Virus record (IMG/VR): IMGVR_UViG_2877948078_000003
Source of the DNA: a virus
Lineage: Duplodnaviria > Heunggongvirae > Uroviricota > Caudoviricetes
DNA: 64,000 bases
Strand: one strand, 5' to 3'
Shown here: positions 1-9,836 of the stretch, piece by piece
Layout of the letters: each line of letters starts with the position of its first letter
Position numbering within the stretch: the stretch's first letter is position 1
Translations under genes and position numbers: made by a program
Notes under the pieces: generated by a model
Databases searched by the model: none
What the model was told of the DNA's origin: nothing
What the model saw: only the letters and a program-made list of their open reading frames with translations

Positions 1-588
1 ATGAATACAGCTATAACTTTTTCTAACGAGTCACCAAAAGTCTTTTTCAAAGATGGTCGCTTGGTAACCACCTCTCAAGCTGTTGCCGACTACTTCGACA
101 AACAACATAAACACGTTTTAGCTAAGATTGACGCACTCGACTGCTCTCCTGAATTTACATCAGCCAACTTTTCGGCTGATGTTCAAACTGTCGAAATTGG
201 CAACTGCGCAGAACGTGAATCACGATGCTACCTGATCACAAAAGACGGCTTCATGTTCCTCGTGATGGGATTTACTGGCAAAAAAGCAGCCAGACTAAAA
301 GAAGCTTACATTGCAAAATTTAACGCAATGGAAGAAGTACTCCACAAACAACCACAAACAACCACAAACAACCACAAACAACCACCAACAGCACAAAACT
401 CCCCACCCCCAAATGATGGGTGCGCATTATTGATCCACTTCGATAAACACGGGCAGGTCGAATTCACGGAAAAAGTACCCGCCTATGCGATGGTATGCAC
501 TCTGGAACGGTTTAAATTTTATCTGGAGCAACACGGCTGGATCGTTGCCCGTAAAGAACAACTGGTAGAACGGTTGATGCGGTTGTAA
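1..588 (+). CDS. Rha-family phage regulatory protein (antirepressor-like)
   Basis: 195-aa ORF; N-terminal segment VTTSQAVADYFDKQHKHVLAKI fits the Rha-domain pattern as I remember it; C-terminal part unassigned. Confidence 0.6.
   Translation: MNTAITFSNESPKVFFKDGRLVTTSQAVADYFDKQHKHVLAKIDALDCSPEFTSANFSADVQTVEIGNCAERESRCYLITKDGFMFLVMGFTGKKAARLKEAYIAKFNAMEEVLHKQPQTTTNNHKQPPTAQNSPPPNDGCALLIHFDKHGQVEFTEKVPAYAMVCTLERFKFYLEQHGWIVARKEQLVERLMRL
342..391. repeat. 10-bp tandem repeat CCACAAACAA, four perfect copies plus one degenerate, inside the Rha-like CDS
   Basis: Read directly at 342-391; encodes the HKQPQTTTNNHKQPP linker. Confidence 0.9.
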
Positions 589-1367
589 TGATTGCAAAAC
601 CCCGGATGATCACCAGGGTTAATTTTATCGAGCGTGATTGCCGCTAATCGCCATCTCTCTGATTGAGCGTAAATCATCCTGGTTATGCTGTTCTTCCTTC
701 ATCTCACGCTGGCGTTGACAAACCTCGTCATTGCGATCGACCTGCGCCTGAACCATTGCAGTAAGCAGCTCATCCAGTTGTTGTCTTGGCAGATTGCAAA
801 ACATGTGATAACAATATGTTTACAAAAGAAAAGCATACTTTTGTGATGCTTTTTTATACCGTTTCATACATTTTTAACTGCCTGATTTTGTTAAAGTCTT
901 TTTTATTTTGCAGTGTCTTATCCCTTCCTTTATAGATCACTTCATCAAAAACAGAGAGGTCAATGTTGACGTAATTGTCACAGGCGCCAGCAATGATAGG
1001 CTCTCAATTTTAAGAGCCGTAGATAAAGAGCCAGCACGTACGTTCATTAAGGAAACGCTTCAAAATGTCTGGGAAAAAATACGGACTTCCGGAAATCTGA
1101 AAAATCATCCATATCAACAGGATGCACGAAAAATGAGAGTTCCGTCACTTCCGGAATTAACTTTTCCGTGGCACTATTTACCCGGCATAGTGTATATCTT
1201 CACAATAATGACATAATCAACGCAGTTCATGGGGGAAGTGATGGTCCCCCATCTTTTTGTCTGTTATTTCTCCCCCCTGTATGCCTGTATCTCATCTGCA
1301 CTGCTCAGCGTTTCCAGCCCCTTACCGTGCTACACTGGCGGTTCTCACCTGACTGCCGTCGTTCTCT

Positions 1368-3290
1368 TCACGATATACGCTGAAACAGCCCCACACAGTA
1401 AGGGTATATTGAACTGACCTGAAGTGGACTACAGACCCGCCATGTTCCTGGCAATGTATTACCGGTTAATGTGGCTGCTTTCTGAGAGCCCAGTTGAATG
1501 CTACATTCTCTCAGTTTACTTCCCGCAAGCACGGCACCTGCGGCATATTTTTCACTGTTACTTATACTGGCCTGAGCAAAGACAAATGCCCCAACAGCAT
1601 GCAAACCACCTGCCGGTGAGCCAGCTGGTCCCTGTGGGCCTGTTGCCCCCCGGGGACCGGGATCACCTTTATCCCCTTTAGCTCCCTGTGGCCCGGTTGC
1701 GCCGGTGGCACCTTTCTCACCCTTTGCCCCGGGAGCGCCAGTATCCCCTTTTGGTCCCTGTGGCCCGGTTGCGCCGGTGGCTCCTTTCTCACCCTTTGCC
1801 CCGGGAGCGCCAGTATCCCCCTTTGGTCCCTGAGGGCCGGGATCACCTTTATCCCCTTTTGCTCCCTGTGGCCCGGTTGCGCCGGTGGCTCCTTTCTCAC
1901 CTTTTGCCCCGGGAGCGCCAGTATCCCCCTTTGGTCCCTGAACGCCCCCCGGCCCAGCCGGACCTGCTGGCCCCGTGTCCCCTTTATCTCCTTTCGGACC
2001 GGGAACACCACCTCCTGCAGCAGCCTCTTCTGCCTTTGTTTTCGCTTCATTTGCCACATCCATTGCCGCCTTCACGGCCTTCGGCGTGGCTGCCTTTGTT
2101 TCGTCATTACTGTTAGTATCACTGCTTAACTGCACCACGCCTTTCTGCGTCGTGCTGGCATCCCGCTGGCTGACCGTATCCGGTTTGTTCTTTGTGCTGT
2201 AATCCACCCGCCAGTGGAAATACTGTGTGTCGCCGTAAACCGTACAGGTACAGACCGTGCCATTAATAAACCCCGTTGCACCGTATTCGCCAATGGTGAC
2301 CCGGACTATGGCTGCCTCATACTTCCCCATCACCTCAATGACACAGCCACCCAGATTAAGTTTTCCCGGTCCGACATCCGTGATGACCTTATTGAATCCC
2401 GCATGCAGTGATGCCTTCATCATCCAGTAAGGCTGGTCAAATGCCCCTTTGGCTTTCAGCCAGGCGACAAACTCGGTCGTGGTCCATTCACCGGCCCCCG
2501 TATGAATGTCCCGCCCGTATACTCTGGCTGCTCCCACAGTGTTCAGAAACTGCACCTTATCCGGGATATCGTCACCGTTTTTCGCTTTCTCCAGGCATCC
2601 GTCCGCTTTGCCCATTGCCGCTTTCACCGCTTTCGGGGTGGCTGCCTTCGTTTCATCATCACTGTCCGTTGCGCTGCTTAACTGCACAATTCCCTTCTGT
2701 GCCGTCGTCGCATCCGGTCCTCCCGGCTCGCCTTTTTCGCCCTTCTCTCCCCGTTCACCTTTCACACCCTGAAGCCCCTGCGGCCCCCTCTCACCACGCT
2801 CACCCTTTGGCCCCCGCTCGCCGGTATCGCCTTTTGGCCCGGGAATACCCTGTGGCCCCGTGTCTCCCTTATCCCCCTTCGGTCCCCTCGCATTCTCTGC
2901 CCGTTTCTTCGCTTCCTCTGCACTCGCCGCTGACGCTTCCGCACGTTTCAGGATTTCCGCGGCCACCGCTTCCAGCTCTGCAAGGGCTTTCGGGTAATAC
3001 TGTGCGTCCTCCAGGTCCATCAGAAATTTATTCAGCGTTCCCGGTGCAGAGTCCGCCTTCACCAGAATGTCACCCACATATGACGGCGCGTACCCTTCCG
3101 TGTTCAGCGTCACCCGGTACAGACCCGGCTCAACATCCATACTGTAACTGCCGGTTTCCCCCGGCTGACCATACGCCACCGTGGTGACAATCACCGTCTC
3201 CGTTGTGCGTCGCGCTTTCAGCTCTATCGTGCATCCCGGTACCGGCTTACCGGCCCCGTCCTTCAGCACACCAGAAATTTTAACCGTCAT
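1368..3290 (-). CDS. stf: Side tail fibre protein with collagen-like Gly-X-Y repeats, probably 3'-truncated or recombined
   Basis: N-terminus [16 protein letters not shown] and the [24 protein letters not shown] motif resemble lambda Stf; long [11 protein letters not shown] repeats; last ~70 aa look non-fibre-like and no tail fibre assembly gene follows. Confidence 0.7.
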
Positions 3291-3302
3291 ACCTTTCCAC
3301 CA

Positions 3303-4132: not shown

Positions 4133-7100
4133 TCAGCTGATACTGATACCTGATGCCCCCTTTTTCATCACAAGAACCTGTACATCACTGGCAAACGTAT
4201 CCGGCGGAATATTTCCCGAATGCCGTGTGGACGTGACAGTGAATGTCAGGGTTACGTGTCCACCTCCCGCACGCATATCCACAATTCGGGCGAAAACCTG
4301 AGGTGCATCATTCGCCACGCCGTCATAAATCACTGCACCGTTCATCAGCACCTTCAGATAACACATCGAATATGTTGTTCTGCCGCTGTCGGTACGCCTG
4401 CTTCCGCGAAATGTCAGCGGAAGTACCACTATCTGGCGGTCAAACGGGTGATCATCATACACAGTGAACGTGCGCGTTCCGGAAGGCCAGTTCACACTGC
4501 CCTCATTCTGACGCGGGAAAGCGCCACTCCCGCCCTTGATAAGATCCCCGATGATGTTTCCCGCTTTCAGTGTGCCATTTATCGTGCAGTTCTCCGCTAT
4601 CACGACATTATTCAGCGTGCCCGAGTTAGCACTGATATGTCCGCTGATATCCGCATTGCGGGCCGTCAGCCTGCCCTCCGGCGTCAGGGAGAACGTCGGG
4701 GGATTGCCGGATGACGTGATACTCACCGCAAACAGTCGCTTCAGGAACACGTCGTTCATGAACAGCTGATTCCCCTGTGCCACAAACAGCGGCGTGGTGT
4801 TGCCGTTCTCCGGGGTAATCATCGCGATACGGTCCGCCTGCAGCAGAATATTGCTCAGCGTCTGGCCATCAGCATCCTCAATCCCCGCACCAATACCGGC
4901 AACATACGGAATGCCGTTTTTCGTTTTCTGCACCTTCAGCATGTACAGCGCTGCCAGCTCATCATTCGTGTCTGACTGGACCTGCTGTATCTGCTGTATG
5001 GTGGCGCTCTGGTCTTCCAGCTTTTTATCCGTGGTCGAGGTGATTTCACTCCCTTTGTCATCCACGTACTGGCGGACCTGCGCTATCTGCCTGGCATTTT
5101 CCTCCGTGCTCTGGCTGACTGTCTGTGTGATTTCACTGCTCACCCGGTCCACCTGCTGACTCACCTGCGCGATGGCCAGCGTCTGGTCCTCATTCTTTTT
5201 CGCAACCAGCTGCGTGAGGCTGTTTTCTGCCTCCCCGATTTTTCGGGTCACTTCCGCAACATCCGTCTCCAGCCGCTGGCGGATGTCTTCTTCCAGTTGC
5301 GTGACCTCAGTACGCAGGGCTGACGCATCAATACGCTCTTTCAGTGCCTTCCCCAGCAGCGCCTCATCTATCAGCCCACGGAAAATTTCCAGATACCCTT
5401 CACCATCATTGCTGGCCTGCCCGCTGGCCTCCACAAACGCAGATTTCCCCACCAGGTTGACGCTGCGCACATAAAACCAGAAATCCGTCCCCGGCCTGAT
5501 GTGCGGGCCGGAGACGCTCCACTGGCTGCCGGTACCCAGATAACGGGCTGAGGTTTCCACCTGTGCCGTGTCCGTGATGCGTTTTTCTGAGAACCAGAAT
5601 TCATACTGTACCGTCGGGTCATACACCGCAGGATGCGGGACCACCGTTATCTGAAAATAGCCCGGCGTCAGTTCAATGCTGGCCGGTGCCGCCGGTGCAT
5701 TAATCCGGAATGTGGTGGTGGCAGGTTCGCCCTGCTGGCCGTAGCTGTTTATCGCCCTGACCGTCAGGGTGTATTCCCCGAGCGGCAGGCCACTGAAACG
5801 GTGCTCCGTGTCCGCCGTGATGGCGCTGGTCACCAGGCGGCTGTTCTCACCACTGCCACTGGTCAGGCGCAGACTGAAGCGCACGCCCTTCACCACCCGC
5901 GGCGTGTCCCATTTCGCCAGCGCCAGATACTGGCCGTCTGAGGCGCTCACCTCCACCGTGAGGTGCTGCACCGCCGGCGGGATGACGCTGTTCAGTGAAC
6001 CGGAGAGCGGCTCAAAGGTGGCCCCGTTATCCACGATGGCTTCTTTTTCCGGTACGTGCTGCACTGCCGTGATGGCAAAGGTGCCGTCCGTGTTTTCCCG
6101 GATGGAAACACAGCGGAACAGGCGACGACGCAGTGACGGCAGGGAGAGTCCCCACACACCGTATGTCGCCACGCCATCCGGCAGGGCGCTGACCTGTATC
6201 CGGTCCGGGGCCAGTTGTGCAGTGATGTCCACGCGCACCGGCTTACCGCTGCCGTTAATCAGGTTCACCGTCGATGTCCCTGTCTCCGGCATGGTCACCT
6301 CACGGTCCAGCGTCAGTGTGCGGCTGGCGGCATCAATGGACAGGATGCGTCCGCCGGTCAGGGTCCCGGCGTAGTCGTTATCACAGATTTCAATGATGTC
6401 ACCGGGCGTATGCCGCAGCCCCTGTGACCCGAGCGTGAAATCCACCGTCTGCGTTTCCAGCAGTTCTGTCTTTATCACCCACAGTCCGGCACGGTGGGCC
6501 TGACCGCGGCTGGTACAGCCAAACGCGTCCATCTTCAGCAGGTTGCGCCCGTAGCGCAGGATGGCGTCCGGGTCTTCCACCAGTTCCGTGGAAGTCTGCC
6601 AGCCGTTCTGCGGGTCGGTGTAATTCACCTCCACCGCCGTGTGCCGGTCCTTCAGGGCACTGAAGCTGTAGCGGAACCCCACGCCGTTATCATCCACCAC
6701 CACATCGCTGTTGGTGTACGGCCACACCACATCCGACGGGCGGTCCTGAACGAACGTCAGCGTCTGGCCGTTCCATACCGGCATACAGCGCATCGCCGAG
6801 CAGAAATCCCCCAGGACATCCCAGACCTTACGCTGCTGTGACAGGTACGCATTGAAAGTCATCCGCGGCTCTGTGCCCCCGAAACCATCCGGGACCGTCT
6901 GGTCACAGTACTGCCCGATGGCATACAGTGCCCACTTGTCCACATCCGCCGCCCCCAGGCGTTTTCCCATCCCGTAGCGCGGGTGGGTCAGCATGTCCCA
7001 CAGGCACCAGGCCGGGTTATTGCTGTATGCCGGTTTCAGACTCCCGTCCCAGATACCGCTGTAGGTGCGTTTTTCCGGGTCATAGTTTGACGGCACCTGA

Positions 7101-7828
7101 ATGATGCGGCCGCGGATATGGTAGTTCACCACCATCTGCTGGCCACCGAACTGCTCCGCATCCACCTGCAGCCCCACAATGGCCGTGTTCGGGTAGCACT
7201 GTTTCACATCGATGATTTCGGTGTATGACGACCACAGCGTTCTGTTCTGCAGCTGGTCCGTGGTACTGTCCGCCGTCACCCTGACCACCCGGATGTTAAA
7301 GGGGCGCTCAGGGAGATTATTCAGAATCACCGACGTCAGGTACTGCGAGGTGGTCTTGCCGTTAATGGTGACATCCTTCTCCGTCACCCAGTTACCGTTA
7401 CGCTCAAGCTGAATCAGCAGGCGGACAGAAGAGGGATTACGGTCACCCTTTGAGGTGGTCTCCACCAGTGACTGCACCCCGAAGGTGACCCGCAGACGGT
7501 CAATGTTCGCTGACGTGATGGTGCGCGTCACCGGCTTTGCCTTCGTCACCTCCACACCCAGTGCGGTTTCCGCCCCGGAGGACTCAAAGCCTTCCGGCGG
7601 TGTCTGCTCCTGCTCCCCGGCACGCCAGACGGCGGTCACACCGTGTATCACGGGATTACCGTCCGTGTCCGTCAGCGGGGTTTTGTTCACCAGAATACTC
7701 TGCAGTCCCTTCACCGGGCCTTCCACCGGTCCCTCACCGATGGCATCAATCACGCTCATCATCTGCGTGGATTTGAGATTGTCCTTCGCCTCACGCGGTG
7801 TGTGCCCCTTGCCGCCCCCTTTACCCAC
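4133..7828 (-). CDS. J: Host specificity protein J (central tail fibre)
   Basis: Near-colinear with lambda gpJ from [20 protein letters not shown] to the C-terminus; start reassigned to GTG 7828 behind a GGAGAGGGGG SD; the track start at 7879 is a TTG extension. Confidence 0.95.
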
Positions 7829-7870
7829 TCTGTCCCCCTCTCCTGTCTGATGTCTGAATCTGTTTATGCC

Positions 7871-7900
7871 CAAAAACAACAGGCACCCCGGAGGGTGCCT
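7871..7900 (-). terminator. Terminator-like hairpin just upstream of J on the coding strand
   Basis: Perfect 8-bp stem AGGCACCC/GGGTGCCT with 4-nt loop, followed on the minus strand by GTTGTTTTTGGG. Confidence 0.4.
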
Positions 7901-8031
7901 GTGTCATGACGGAATAAAATTTCTGAAATTCTTCACATTTCCGGCAATTGCCTGTAGCCGTAATAATGACGCTGCGTTACATTTTTGATGCCTGAAAAAT
8001 AACTCCATAACGTTAATCTTCATCGTTCTCT

Positions 8032-8065
8032 CCCGCAGCTCCGCTGATTCTGCGGGATTTTTTTA
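8032..8065 (+). terminator. Plus-strand intrinsic terminator hairpin, repeat unit 1
   Basis: CCCGCAG-CTCCGCTGATT-CTGCGGG followed by ATTTTTTT. Confidence 0.45.
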
Positions 8066-8273
8066 TCCCTTAAACCCGGCACGATGTTATCTGTCTTCTT
8101 CCACAGATACCCGCCTGGCTTCCGCTCCCCCGCTACCGGATAAAAAGTCTGAATTTATTCACATTTCTGCAAATTACCTGTAGCCACAATAATGACGCTG
8201 CGTTACATTTTTTGCGGGTAAATAAAAATAAAACGCCAACAGGTTAGTCAACATCGTTCTCTTCCCGCAGCAC

Positions 8274-8305
8274 GGAGTACTGCGGGATTTTTTTATCCCC
8301 TGAAC
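8274..8305 (+). terminator. Plus-strand intrinsic terminator hairpin, repeat unit 2
   Basis: CCCGCAG-CACGGAGTA-CTGCGGG followed by ATTTTTTT. Confidence 0.45.
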
Positions 8306-8482
8306 CCGGCATGATGCCTTCTGTCCTCTGCCACCGATATCCGGCCCCTCCCTTCCCGTGAATAAAAATTCTGAGTTTATTCACATTTCCGCACACTGAC
8401 TGTAGTGCTCATAATCACGCTGCGTTACAGTTCATCTGCCAGAATAATGAAAAATTCCTTAAAGTTAATCTTCGTATCTCTT

Positions 8483-8515
8483 CCCGCAGGCGCCGAACAC
8501 TGCGGGATTTTTTTT
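8483..8515 (+). terminator. Plus-strand intrinsic terminator hairpin, repeat unit 3, abutting the I stop codon
   Basis: CCCGCAG-GCGCCGAACA-CTGCGGG followed by T8; the I stop (TGA, minus) overlaps the last T. Confidence 0.45.
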
Positions 8516-9195
8516 CATCCCCGCCCGATAACCACCACTTTCCCGTCACCGCCCTCATCACGGGTGCTGATGTCCTGGGATATCCGTCGTGAACCAACCA
8601 GCATTTCACCGTAAGGCACCGGCATCGGATTCCCCTGAGCAATCATGTTGTCCAGTGACGAAAAATACGTGTTCTGTTTACCGTTATCCGTACTTTTGTA
8701 TTCCGGCGTCTTTGCCTTCGGGGCCAGCATCTGGGCCACACCACCCAGTATCATGCTGGCACCCAGTGAGAACAGCATCGTGGTGGCAGTCAGCCCTCCG
8801 GCACTCAGGGCTGCGCCCCACAACGCCATCGTTGCACCGGCGGTGAAGAAAGAGCCCACGATGGCTGCAGCCCCCAGCACCACCTGAAAAACACCATTTC
8901 CCCCGGCCCCTGCCAGCCTCGGTACAATATGAATCACGGCCCTCCCGCTCAGCGGTTCATGAAGACGGGCATACACCGCCTCCGGCGCGGTATCCTCACC
9001 GGCAATACGTATCTGATACCAGCCTTCGTTCATCTGACAGCGGAATCCCGGCACCTGCAGCGACAGGGCACGGATGGCCTCCGCTGCCGTGTTCACATAC
9101 AGACTGATGCGGCGACCAAATCGTTGTAAATCCCCGTGAAGGCAGATGCGGACCAGTGGCGGTGACGCCAGACAGAATGCGTTCGTCGTTGCCAT
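8515..9195 (-). CDS. I: Tail assembly protein I
   Basis: Similar to lambda gpI (ICLHGDLQRFGRRI, NGKQNTYFSSLDNM). Confidence 0.9.
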   Translation of the reverse strand: MATTNAFCLASPPLVRICLHGDLQRFGRRISLYVNTAAEAIRALSLQVPGFRCQMNEGWYQIRIAGEDTAPEAVYARLHEPLSGRAVIHIVPRLAGAGGNGVFQVVLGAAAIVGSFFTAGATMALWGAALSAGGLTATTMLFSLGASMILGGVAQMLAPKAKTPEYKSTDNGKQNTYFSSLDNMIAQGNPMPVPYGEMLVGSRRISQDISTRDEGGDGKVVVIGRG

Positions 9196-9836
9196 TTTTC
9201 AGAATACCTCTCCCGTTTACTCAGTTGTTCAGGTATATGGTGAAGCAGGTCACCGTTGCCACAGTAAATGGCGGCATGATTCGGCACCGATGCGCCAAAG
9301 CAGCACAGCAGGATATCGCCTGCCTGTGCAGAGGACAGGGACACCCGGCAAAAGCCAGTGGCCTCCATATTGTCCAGGTACAGGTTCTGGCCGTTGCGCC
9401 ACCAGTCATCCTCGCGGTGAAAATCCGGCATCTCAATCCCCGCCAGATGGTATGCATCCCGGAACAGGGTGTAACAGTCCGTCACACCGTGTTCAAAGCG
9501 CCGTCCGGTCAGGTGCGGCACACAGCGGAACCGGTGAATTTCACCCCGGCAGACCAGCCACCAGGGCAGGGCACTCTTTATCTGCAGCCGCCGGTCCGCC
9601 TCGCTCAGCCAGGGCAGACCAGCGGGATGACTGTGGACCAGCGCCACAATCTCCCCCTGTATCTGTGCCTGCAGCCAGTCTTCCGGCGCAATACGAAAAT
9701 ACGCCTCCGGCTCTGCGGAGATATTCACGCAGGACTGGTACCGTTCGCCCTCCGGGGTGCTTATCACGAAGCCGCACGACTCCGCAGGCGCACACCGCCG
9801 GGCATGCGCCAGAATCACTGATTCAGTCTGTGTCAT
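9093..9836 (-). CDS. K: Tail assembly protein K
   Basis: MTQTESVILAHARRCAPAESCGF onward matches lambda gpK; start moved to ATG 9836; overlaps I as in lambda. Confidence 0.9.
   Translation of the reverse strand: MTQTESVILAHARRCAPAESCGFVISTPEGERYQSCVNISAEPEAYFRIAPEDWLQAQIQGEIVALVHSHPAGLPWLSEADRRLQIKSALPWWLVCRGEIHRFRCVPHLTGRRFEHGVTDCYTLFRDAYHLAGIEMPDFHREDDWWRNGQNLYLDNMEATGFCRVSLSSAQAGDILLCCFGASVPNHAAIYCGNGDLLHHIPEQLSKRERYSEKWQRRTHSVWRHRHWSASAFTGIYNDLVAASVCM

Follow-up and report, generated by a model that had tools for sequence, protein, structure and literature searches.

The closest described counterparts of the element analysed here are two sets of Hfq-dependent small RNAs (sRNAs) encoded in Escherichia coli prophages, PasB and EcOnc22-24; the element itself is an array of three tandem units between tail genes I and J in a 64,000-nucleotide stretch of Caudoviricetes DNA (IMG/VR record IMGVR_UViG_2877948078_000003; the whole stretch is referred to as the window). 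PasB of enteropathogenic E. coli (EPEC) O127:H6 E2348/69 is encoded in prophage PP6 (NC_011601.1 1466343-1466261, minus strand) and was validated by Northern blotting as an RNA of 83 nt (Pearl Mizrahi et al. 2021, PMC8550237, Table S6). Ligation of interacting RNAs followed by their sequencing (RIL-seq) assigned it 37 interactions, in which it is nearly always RNA2 of the chimeras, and its level in an hfq deletion mutant showed a log2 fold change of -6.8 in one condition (PMC8550237). EcOnc22 (Sp15, Stx1), EcOnc23 (Sp14) and EcOnc24 (Sp11) of enterohaemorrhagic E. coli (EHEC) O157:H7 Sakai are mutual homologues (Tree et al. 2014, PMC4104026, Table S2), and EcOnc22, about 85 nt long by Northern blotting, loses stability when Hfq is absent (PMC4104026). 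A 2026 survey (Zhu, Shabalina and Storz, bioRxiv 10.64898/2026.05.13.724894) reported no more than a few nucleotide differences among PasB variants, with copies at least 28 kb apart.

Two further groups of sRNAs offer partial parallels. The anti-sRNAs AgvB and AsxR, encoded by Stx and related prophages (PMC4104026), resemble the units described below in being short Hfq-binding prophage RNAs with A-R-N-type motifs, a variable targeting part to which a conserved 3' terminator module is attached, and a fixed 'moron' position in many lambdoid prophages. They differ in sequence, which is unrelated, in length and action, being 51-60 nt long and sequestering the core sRNAs GcvB and FnrS, and in location, as they lie downstream of PR', beside the stx and lysis genes, whereas the units lie in the tail operon. 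Neither AgvB (RF02702) nor AsxR (RF02703) gave an Rfam match in the window, and the position of the units is not the PR' moron site. Tandem paralogous sRNA genes are known as OmrA/OmrB in E. coli, PrrF1/PrrF2 in Pseudomonas and LhrC1-4 in Listeria. Like the units of the window, these are adjacent homologous genes, each with its own promoter (predicted, in our case) and terminator, with conserved 3' modules and diverged pairing regions; unlike them, they are chromosomal core genes with established regulators and targets, whereas the array of the window is phage-borne, stands on the opposite strand within a structural operon and belongs to a family whose copy number per locus ranges from 1 to 4 via recombination.

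With a probability of roughly 0.78, we conclude that the I-J gap of the window holds three paralogous genes for Hfq-dependent prophage sRNAs of the PasB / EcOnc22-24 family, arranged head to tail and antisense to the tail operon. Elements of this kind are already known, this being an experimentally detected sRNA family. The new points are the array itself, tandem and diversified, how broad the family is, the equivalence of PasB and EcOnc22-24, and the CRP-like architecture of the promoter region.

The I-J gap and its relationship to PasB and EcOnc22-24

The region is identical to a lambdoid prophage of the Shiga toxin-producing E. coli (STEC) strain 2013C-3181 (RefSeq record). The gap between I and J measures 686 bp, compared with 60 bp in lambda, in agreement with the enlargement to ~690 bp claimed in the initial annotation, and the RefSeq region of 2013C-3181 carries no annotated feature between the two genes. 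Three head-to-tail units fill positions 7912-8515 with periods of 226 and 222 bp. Tandem Repeats Finder reported 7912-8429 with a period of 226, 76% matches and a score of 522, and a repeat search placed the three copies of an 89-nt family at 7912, 8138 and 8360 (76-79% identity to the reference copy), together with further 40-nt and 25-nt families that cover the remainder of each unit; the three tandem units initially described are thereby confirmed. The layout is as follows.

Positions 7912..8064, plus strand: unit 1, a complete PasB-family sRNA gene with upstream block, promoter, sRNA and terminator, of the variant that occupies the I-J gaps of Sakai Sp11, Sp14 and Sp15 (PasB-only profile, E = 2.2e-25; alignment with the PasB locus)
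Positions 8065..8137, no strand: spacer 1, lacking any recognisable feature; a derivation from gene I could not be demonstrated
Positions 8138..8294, plus strand: unit 2, a gene of the PasB family whose promoter is mosaic and whose body, AAACGCCAACAGGUUAGUCAACAUCG, differs and has no CUCCUU (PasB-only profile, E = 1e-18)
Positions 8295..8359, no strand: spacer 2, its first part about 84% identical to spacer 1
Positions 8360..8515, plus strand: unit 3, a PasB-family gene (PasB-only profile, E = 2.9e-28)
Positions 4133..7828, minus strand: gene J, tail tip / host specificity (as annotated in RefSeq for the identical 2013C-3181 region)
Positions 8515..9096, minus strand: tail assembly gene I, stop codon at 8515-8517 (same annotation)

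The profile cited in this list was built from 18 canonical PasB-type loci only, with no window-like sequences among them, and in an nhmmer search it matched the three units and nothing else in the 64 kb. Alignment of all three units with the PasB locus shows homology that extends from about 70 nt upstream of the RNA through the T-run, at a unit-to-unit or unit-to-PasB identity of about 72-82%, with differing bodies and loops. The reverse complement of the Northern probe used for PasB, AGCTCCGCGATCACTGCGGGATT (PMC8550237), matches the unit 1 terminator. According to RefSeq, the PasB coordinates fall in the gap between a tail assembly gene (end 1466255) and gpJ (start 1466496), on the strand opposite to both. 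PasB and the units share the I-J position, the antisense orientation, homology from the upstream block to the T-run, the stem CCCGCAG/CTGCGGG-A-T7, and an A-rich stretch in the body, which in PasB and in units 1 and 3, though not in unit 2, is combined with a segment of the CUCCUU...AUCUUC type. PasB is a single cassette, whereas the window has three, 222-226 bp apart.

A similar picture emerges for EcOnc22-24. In NC_002695.2, the peaks obtained by crosslinking and analysis of cDNA (CRAC) with Hfq lie in the I-J gaps of Sp15, Sp14 and Sp11, on the strand opposite to the tail genes as in the window. Their published coordinates derive from an older genome version; with an offset of about +142 nt, calibrated on AgvB (AgvB1), the peaks sit on the sRNA body. 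These gaps of Sakai contain one cassette each, unlike the window, and the Sp15 cassette is of the same variant as window unit 1. Judged by sequence, PasB and EcOnc22-24 belong to one family; the available parts of the 2021 PasB paper (PMC8550237) and of the 2026 survey (bioRxiv 10.64898/2026.05.13.724894) do not draw this link. Rfam 15 returned no family at E <= 1 in 7000-9500 and none at the gathering score in the whole window, which we do not hold against membership because Rfam evidently contains no PasB model; no tRNA genes were found.

The proposal of short plus-strand units with intrinsic terminators, antisense to the tail operon, is thus borne out by homology to PasB and EcOnc22-24, RNAs of ~83-85 nt that depend on Hfq. 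For the units of the window, the sequence itself establishes homology, position and orientation, the anatomy of promoter and terminator, and a stronger conservation of cassettes than spacers; that such an RNA exists, with a size of ~83-85 nt, dependence on Hfq and many partners in trans, is known from the literature on the homologues, and expression of all three units, control by CRP and the identity of the seed are predictions. Their initial description as possible antisense sRNAs holds for orientation; as to function, the 37 RIL-seq partners of PasB indicate action in trans, the ribosome-binding site of J lies outside all three predicted RNAs, and the sole overlap with I is the final T of unit 3, which is the third base of the I stop codon.

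The spacers were also considered as decayed copies of the antisense 3' end of I, as the initial annotation had suggested for the downstream parts of units 1 and 2. This origin is not supported. Local alignment with the last 185 nt of I gave scores of 14 and 17, compared with shuffle means of 15.4 and 15.2, blastn-short searches against related loci covering several I alleles matched only other inter-unit spacers, and the spacer translations are unlike the I C-terminus. Only a few bases past the T-run (ATCCC) are common to the spacers and the I 3' region.

Several features of the surroundings deserve mention. A minus-strand hairpin with a T-run, resembling an intrinsic terminator, lies at 7879..7902 between the array and J and is not part of the repeat. 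It is present at every related locus inspected, and the 60-bp I-J gap of lambda has an analogous hairpin. The hairpin looks ancestral to the I-J junction, the sRNA cassettes having apparently been inserted between it and the I stop codon, and it would halt non-antiterminated sense transcription ahead of J. Between this sense-strand hairpin and the J start codon, the 5' leader of J contains a 7-nt repeat, TGTCTGA, with 2 copies in the window (7844-7857), 5 in a related four-unit locus (L003, 1474-1508) and a number that varies among four-unit arrays; differences in copy number change the distance from the hairpin to the J ribosome-binding site. Read antisense, the I-J gap of lambda (L325, 15445-15504) contains the string CCCGCAGGCG, also found in the unit 3 terminator, and TTCACA, also found in the CRP-like half-site; these could be coincidence or a vestige of a cassette. 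Farther out, by the 2013C-3181 annotation corresponding to about 1-3300 of the window, the prophage adjoins yciE and a truncated OmpW-family pseudogene (an ompW remnant), and its end near the tail fibre genes has a Rha-family regulator along with DUF4376 and DinI-like gene fragments.

Predicted promoter region, RNA body and terminator of the cassettes

Each unit contains the same succession of signals on the plus strand, listed here by unit.

Positions 7922..7937, plus strand: unit 1 CRP-like palindrome TCTGAAATTCTTCACA, followed by TTT; 9/10 core positions of TGTGA-N6-TCACA
Positions 7962..7967, plus strand: unit 1 -10-like hexamer (i), AATAAT, 24 nt after TCACA
Positions 7978..7983, plus strand: unit 1 -10-like hexamer (ii), TACATT, 40 nt after TCACA; predicted start near 7990
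Positions 8001..8023, plus strand: unit 1 candidate seed AACUCCAUAACGUUAAUCUUCAU, composed of CUCC, which is anti-Shine-Dalgarno-like, and UUAAUCUUC, which the family conserves; an A-rich, A-R-N-like stretch precedes it (conservation across body types)
Positions 8032..8064, plus strand: unit 1 intrinsic terminator, CCCGCAG/CTCCGCTGATT/CTGCGGG, A, T7 (sequence, fold and motif count)
Positions 8148-8163, plus strand: unit 2 CRP-like site, matching TCTGA-N6-TCACA
Positions 8188-8193 and 8204-8209, plus strand: unit 2 hexamers (i) AATAAT and (ii) TACATT, at fixed spacing from TCACA
Positions 8264-8294, plus strand: unit 2 terminator, loop CACGGAGTA, T7 (sequence and fold)
Positions 8370-8385, plus strand: unit 3 CRP-like site, matching TCTGA-N6-TCACA
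Positions 8410-8415 and 8426-8431, plus strand: unit 3 hexamers (i) CATAAT and (ii) TACAGT, at fixed spacing from TCACA
Within 8360..8515, plus strand: unit 3 candidate seed AAUUCCUUAAAGUUAAUCUUCGU (sequence)
Positions 8483-8515, plus strand: unit 3 terminator, loop GCGCCGAACA, T8 (sequence and fold)

Upstream of the RNA, the most conserved part of every unit is GAATAAAA-nn-TCTGA-N6-TCACA-TTT. The string TCTGA-N6-TCACA(TTT), a 9/10 match to the CRP core, has 4 matches in the 64 kb, three of which are the units. Among 61 distinct units, collected by a retrieval that did not require TCTGA, neither half-site changes, while the N6 spacer does. In every full-length unit, TCTGA-N6-TCACA is followed without insertions or deletions by both hexamers, (i) reading (T/A/C)ATAAT at 24 nt and (ii) reading TAnnnT at 40 nt. 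All in-register variants, among them two types without hexamer (i), retain T1, A2 and T6 of hexamer (ii). In E2348/69, the start expected from the corresponding hexamer is 1 nt away from the 5' end published for PasB.

The caution of the initial annotation concerning a sigma-70 promoter, based on the 24 nt between TTCACA and (A/C)ATAAT, proved justified. A promoter scan found no canonical sigma-70 site, and this spacing rules out TTCACA as a -35 element; the string is the right half of the CRP-like palindrome. The palindrome is centred at about -60.5 relative to the start predicted from hexamer (ii) and at -44.5 relative to that from hexamer (i); canonical CRP positions are -61.5 for class I and -41.5 for class II promoters. 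CyaR is an example of a CRP-dependent sRNA promoter. The cassettes resemble promoters of this type in having a TGTGA-N6-TCACA-like palindrome at a fixed distance upstream of a weak promoter without a -35 element, and differ from them in that the left half-site reads TCTGA, the position is only roughly that of class I (-60.5 compared with the canonical -61.5), and CRP binding is predicted from sequence. PasB is more abundant in overnight static lysogeny broth (LB) than in mid-log Dulbecco's modified Eagle medium (DMEM), opposite to the CRP-repressed Spf (PMC8550237). Together, these features are suggestive of control of the PasB-family cassettes by CRP with cyclic AMP (cAMP-CRP), as a prediction.

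Folding from either candidate start predicts a 7-8-bp GC hairpin with U7-8, preceded by a largely open, A-rich body. An A-rich, A-R-N-like stretch together with a U-tail is the usual arrangement for Hfq binding, and Hfq A-R-N motifs of this kind have been discussed for prophage sRNAs (Tree 2014, PMC4104026). Immediately upstream of the stem, (A)AYUCCUUA...UUAAUCUUC is common to most body types. The corresponding segment (...CUCCUU..AUCUUC..), which has been proposed as the seed of PasB, reads AACUCCAU..UUAAUCUUCAU in unit 1 and AAUUCCUU..UUAAUCUUCGU in unit 3, with CGCCAACAGGUUAGUCAACAUCG in its place in unit 2. In the predicted structures, the unit 1 candidate seed lies partly within a weak helix, and the segment is unpaired in the centroid structures of PasB and unit 3. 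Considering that CUCCUU is complementary to the Shine-Dalgarno sequence, the most economical guess is that these RNAs repress translation at ribosome-binding sites. Since the candidate seed of unit 2 differs, the three RNAs probably have different sets of targets.

At the 3' end, each unit carries CCCGCAG-loop-CTGCGGG-A-T7/8 on the plus strand, with identical stems and three different loops, CTCCGCTGATT (11 nt) in unit 1, CACGGAGTA in unit 2 and GCGCCGAACA in unit 3; the sequence thus upholds the initial observation of identical stems, differing loops and T-runs (7, 7 and 8) on the plus strand only. The 15-mer CTGCGGGATTTTTTT has exactly three exact copies in the 64-kb window (8050, 8280 and 8500, all on the plus strand), with 0.01 expected by chance, and the pattern TTCACATTT-N-CGCTGCGTTA occurs there only three times, with 0 expected. 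A consensus terminator scan caught only the unit 1 terminator, owing to its loop limit of 8 nt.

Across the family, at least 20 loop variants of 4-17 nt are flanked by the same stem. Among 43 distinct terminator variants, 36 have the CCCGCAG/CTGCGGG stem and the remaining ones keep the pairing with other stems, as in CCCACAG/CUGUGGG and CUCCCGU/ACGGGAG; only three alternative stems exist, giving formal covariation statistics low power. Two loops on otherwise identical unit 3-type cassettes coincide with a changed downstream I allele, which suggests that the loop changes in the last unit mark a recombination junction inside the terminator. The loops were also considered as selected, hypervariable specificity determinants. 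They are the most variable part of the cassette, yet their clearest case of change tracks a change of I allele, and we do not claim selection on them.

These elements can be combined into a model in which each cassette is self-contained, an invariant CRP-like block and two -10-like hexamers being followed by an RNA of ~75-95 nt with the usual build of an Hfq-dependent sRNA, i.e. an A-rich unstructured 5' part, a candidate seed, a 7-8-bp GC stem and U7-8. In a lysogen, each cassette would be transcribed separately, probably more strongly when cAMP-CRP is active. With their U-tail and A-rich stretch the RNAs would bind Hfq, and they would base-pair with mRNAs in trans, units 1 and 3 via the anti-Shine-Dalgarno-like seed (CUCC/UUCCUU...UUAAUCUUC) and unit 2 via a different one, and the array would supply three non-redundant regulators. 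The terminator loops would be free to vary, and the array would have arisen, and be reshuffled, by recombination between cassettes.

Array variants and apparent maintenance of the cassettes

To describe the arrays, we used a sample of 201 loci with at least one unit, obtained from two IMG/VR pattern scans and nhmmer; it includes the window, the window's own genome and one E. coli record, and some of its contigs are truncated. One unit is present at 179 of these loci, two at 7, three at 5 and four at 10. The order within four-unit arrays is fixed. Labelled after locus L003, position 1 has the body of window unit 1; position 2 has a different seed region and the terminator stem CUCCCGU/ACGGGAG; position 3 has the body of window unit 2 with a degenerate hexamer (i) (GTGCAT); and position 4 has the body of window unit 3. 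When the sequences are read side by side, window unit 2 appears as a mosaic, its CRP-like region resembling position 2 of L003, its -10 region the unit 1 type and its body position 3. Judging from these resemblances, the window array is a recombinant of the commoner four-unit array. The mosaic unit and the shared bodies imply that arrays evolve by cassette recombination and not by recent simple duplication. The initial idea of serial duplication has to be qualified accordingly; at about 76-79%, the three units are too far apart to count as duplicates of recent date.

A second kind of array, seen at L246 (9818-10156), L279 and L294, has two cassettes only 179 bp apart. In the L246-type array, the first cassette has a body like unit 2 of L003 and a stem with a U-G pair (CUCCCGU/GCGGGAG), and the second has the CCCGCAG stem. 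The phage-contig sample contains at least 10 body types.

In complete E. coli genomes, at least 80% of the 711-bp array region, either in the window version or as its four-unit relative, is present in 92 of 5,426. The best-matching records mostly extend over about 934 bp, the length expected of four units, and only five complete genomes match the window array at 99% or more; many of the hosts among those listed are cattle-associated or human STEC. Homologues of a whole unit, defined as matches covering at least 80% of the 153-nt unit, occur at 5,531 places in 1,824 of the 5,426 genomes, with up to 10 per genome, and none of the 40 matches listed has an annotated feature beneath it. Strain 2013C-3181 has 6 such places, and hence three further copies outside this array.

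A tandem arrangement of PasB-family genes was not found in the literature searched. With PasB as the query against the window, megablast finds nothing and default blastn finds unit 1 only. The BLAST search of the 2026 survey used a word size of 28 and required more than 75% query coverage (bioRxiv 10.64898/2026.05.13.724894), explaining why arrays and diverged types were missed.

To assess whether the cassettes are maintained, variable sites were counted in nine four-unit arrays. They amount to 10 of 586 in the units, 16 of 194 in the spacers and 7 of 47 in the loops (Fisher p = 6e-5 and 9e-5), i.e. units vary about 5 times less than spacers. This lower variation indicates that all cassettes look maintained while spacers and loops drift.

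Alternative readings and biological meaning

Several points weigh against the interpretation of the units as three PasB-family sRNA genes under cAMP-CRP control. The predicted RNA lengths, 91-98 nt from hexamer (i) or 75-83 nt from hexamer (ii), compare with ~83-85 nt on Northern blots. The promoter scan mentioned above found no canonical -35 element, the left half-site of the CRP-like palindrome has C in place of the contacted G, and the -44.5 centre for hexamer (i) misses the class II position. The contrast between LB and DMEM is confounded by growth phase and oxygen. The CUCCUU motif of the family is missing from unit 2, and the seeds and targets of the whole family are candidates only. The case for expression of units 2 and 3 consists of their intact signals. 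The offset applied to the EcOnc coordinates was calibrated at 1.94 Mb, away from the three EcOnc loci, and their placement is a step that we infer. Finally, the conservation test compares few, closely related and recombining sequences, and can be taken as supportive only.

The alternative that survives best, although we regard it as unlikely, is that the RNAs act mainly in cis or on relatives. They are perfectly complementary to the I-J part of the late tail mRNA, be it that of their own prophage or of a co-resident or infecting lambdoid phage with the same cassette; pairing could trigger cleavage, uncouple J or lower its expression, the late mRNA could sponge the sRNAs at induction, and a mixed array could widen the range of phages affected. 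At every locus inspected, the family does occupy the I-J gap, antisense to the tail genes; the unit 1 type is also the sole cassette of other prophages, e.g. Sakai Sp15, and the copy number in O157 genomes reaches 10. Plasmid and phage antisense RNAs have specificity loops, which the large variable loops on fixed stems resemble. Against this, the J ribosome-binding site and the I coding sequence are not overlapped, save for the one base of the I stop codon, and PasB behaves as trans-acting in RIL-seq, with its 37 partners. The unit 2 body, the unit 3 type and the L003-unit-2 type were seen almost only inside arrays, indicating that arrays are not simple collections of the cassettes of other phages, and the loop changes track the downstream I allele, as expected of recombination junctions rather than of selection on loops. 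Action in cis or on relatives would be compatible with regulation in trans by three PasB-family sRNAs and does not exclude it.

Somewhat less probable again is that only one unit works, most likely unit 1 or else the I-proximal unit 3, and that the others are decaying by-products of unequal recombination. Tandem copies are indeed rare, 179 of the 201 sampled loci being single, the third unit of the four-unit array has lost hexamer (i), reading GTGCAT, and unit 2 lacks CUCCUU and has the weakest PasB-profile score. All three units nevertheless keep the CRP-like site, the hexamers, the A-rich body, a perfect stem, the T-run and the spacing between them; units vary about 5 times less than spacers across the nine four-unit arrays, and the order and content of the units are conserved among arrays of different strains.

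A more far-reaching proposal, which we consider doubtful and a less likely one than either of the above, views the I-J site as a set of recombination-shuffled cassettes, each comprising a nutrient-sensing cAMP-CRP promoter and a different Hfq-dependent sRNA, that would serve as an RNA-based device of competition or immunity between prophages, with the variable loops as specificity determinants. If this were true, each sRNA would regulate host mRNAs in trans and in addition be a perfect antisense to the tail mRNA of any lambdoid phage with the same cassette; a multi-cassette prophage could interfere with J expression of several rival or co-induced phages, or sponging by the late mRNA could switch off the resident sRNAs upon induction.

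A small, late-expressed protein gene on the tail-gene strand (e.g. MKINVMELFF..., 39 aa, 8023-7904), with the plus-strand hairpins incidental, has in its favour an ATG in unit 1 with a GGAG-type ribosome-binding site 6 nt upstream, an N-terminus, MKINV(K/M)ELF, that recurs in PasB-type and unit-1-type cassettes with some differences at third codon positions, and hypothetical proteins annotated across the cassette on the tail-gene strand in the records of phages 1720a-02 (L123, 712-864) and PhiR12_1 (L124, 885-983). It is nonetheless highly improbable and was rejected on account of its missing start codons and its inconsistent length and frame: roughly a third or more of the sampled units, window unit 3 among them, have ACG in place of the ATG or have lost it by deletion, the open reading frame varies in length between 11 and more than 39 aa, is frameshifted and has C-termini that are unrelated, AAGATTAA is conserved where the start codon is lost, codon 5 varies at all three positions, and plus-strand RNAs have been shown experimentally for homologues. 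As the reading frame is not conserved across the family, the two hypothetical proteins are probably over-predictions.

Returning to the PasB-family interpretation, PasB and EcOnc22-24 rank with the more abundant prophage RNAs bound by Hfq in EPEC and EHEC, and the family to which they belong is larger and more diverse than reported. In some STEC prophages, 2-4 different members stand in tandem, providing a natural allelic series for the rules that relate seeds to targets, and the promoter architecture proposes a testable regulatory input, cAMP-CRP. Surveys that use BLAST with a long word size undercount such genes, which affects the comparison of sRNA repertoires between pathogenic strains.

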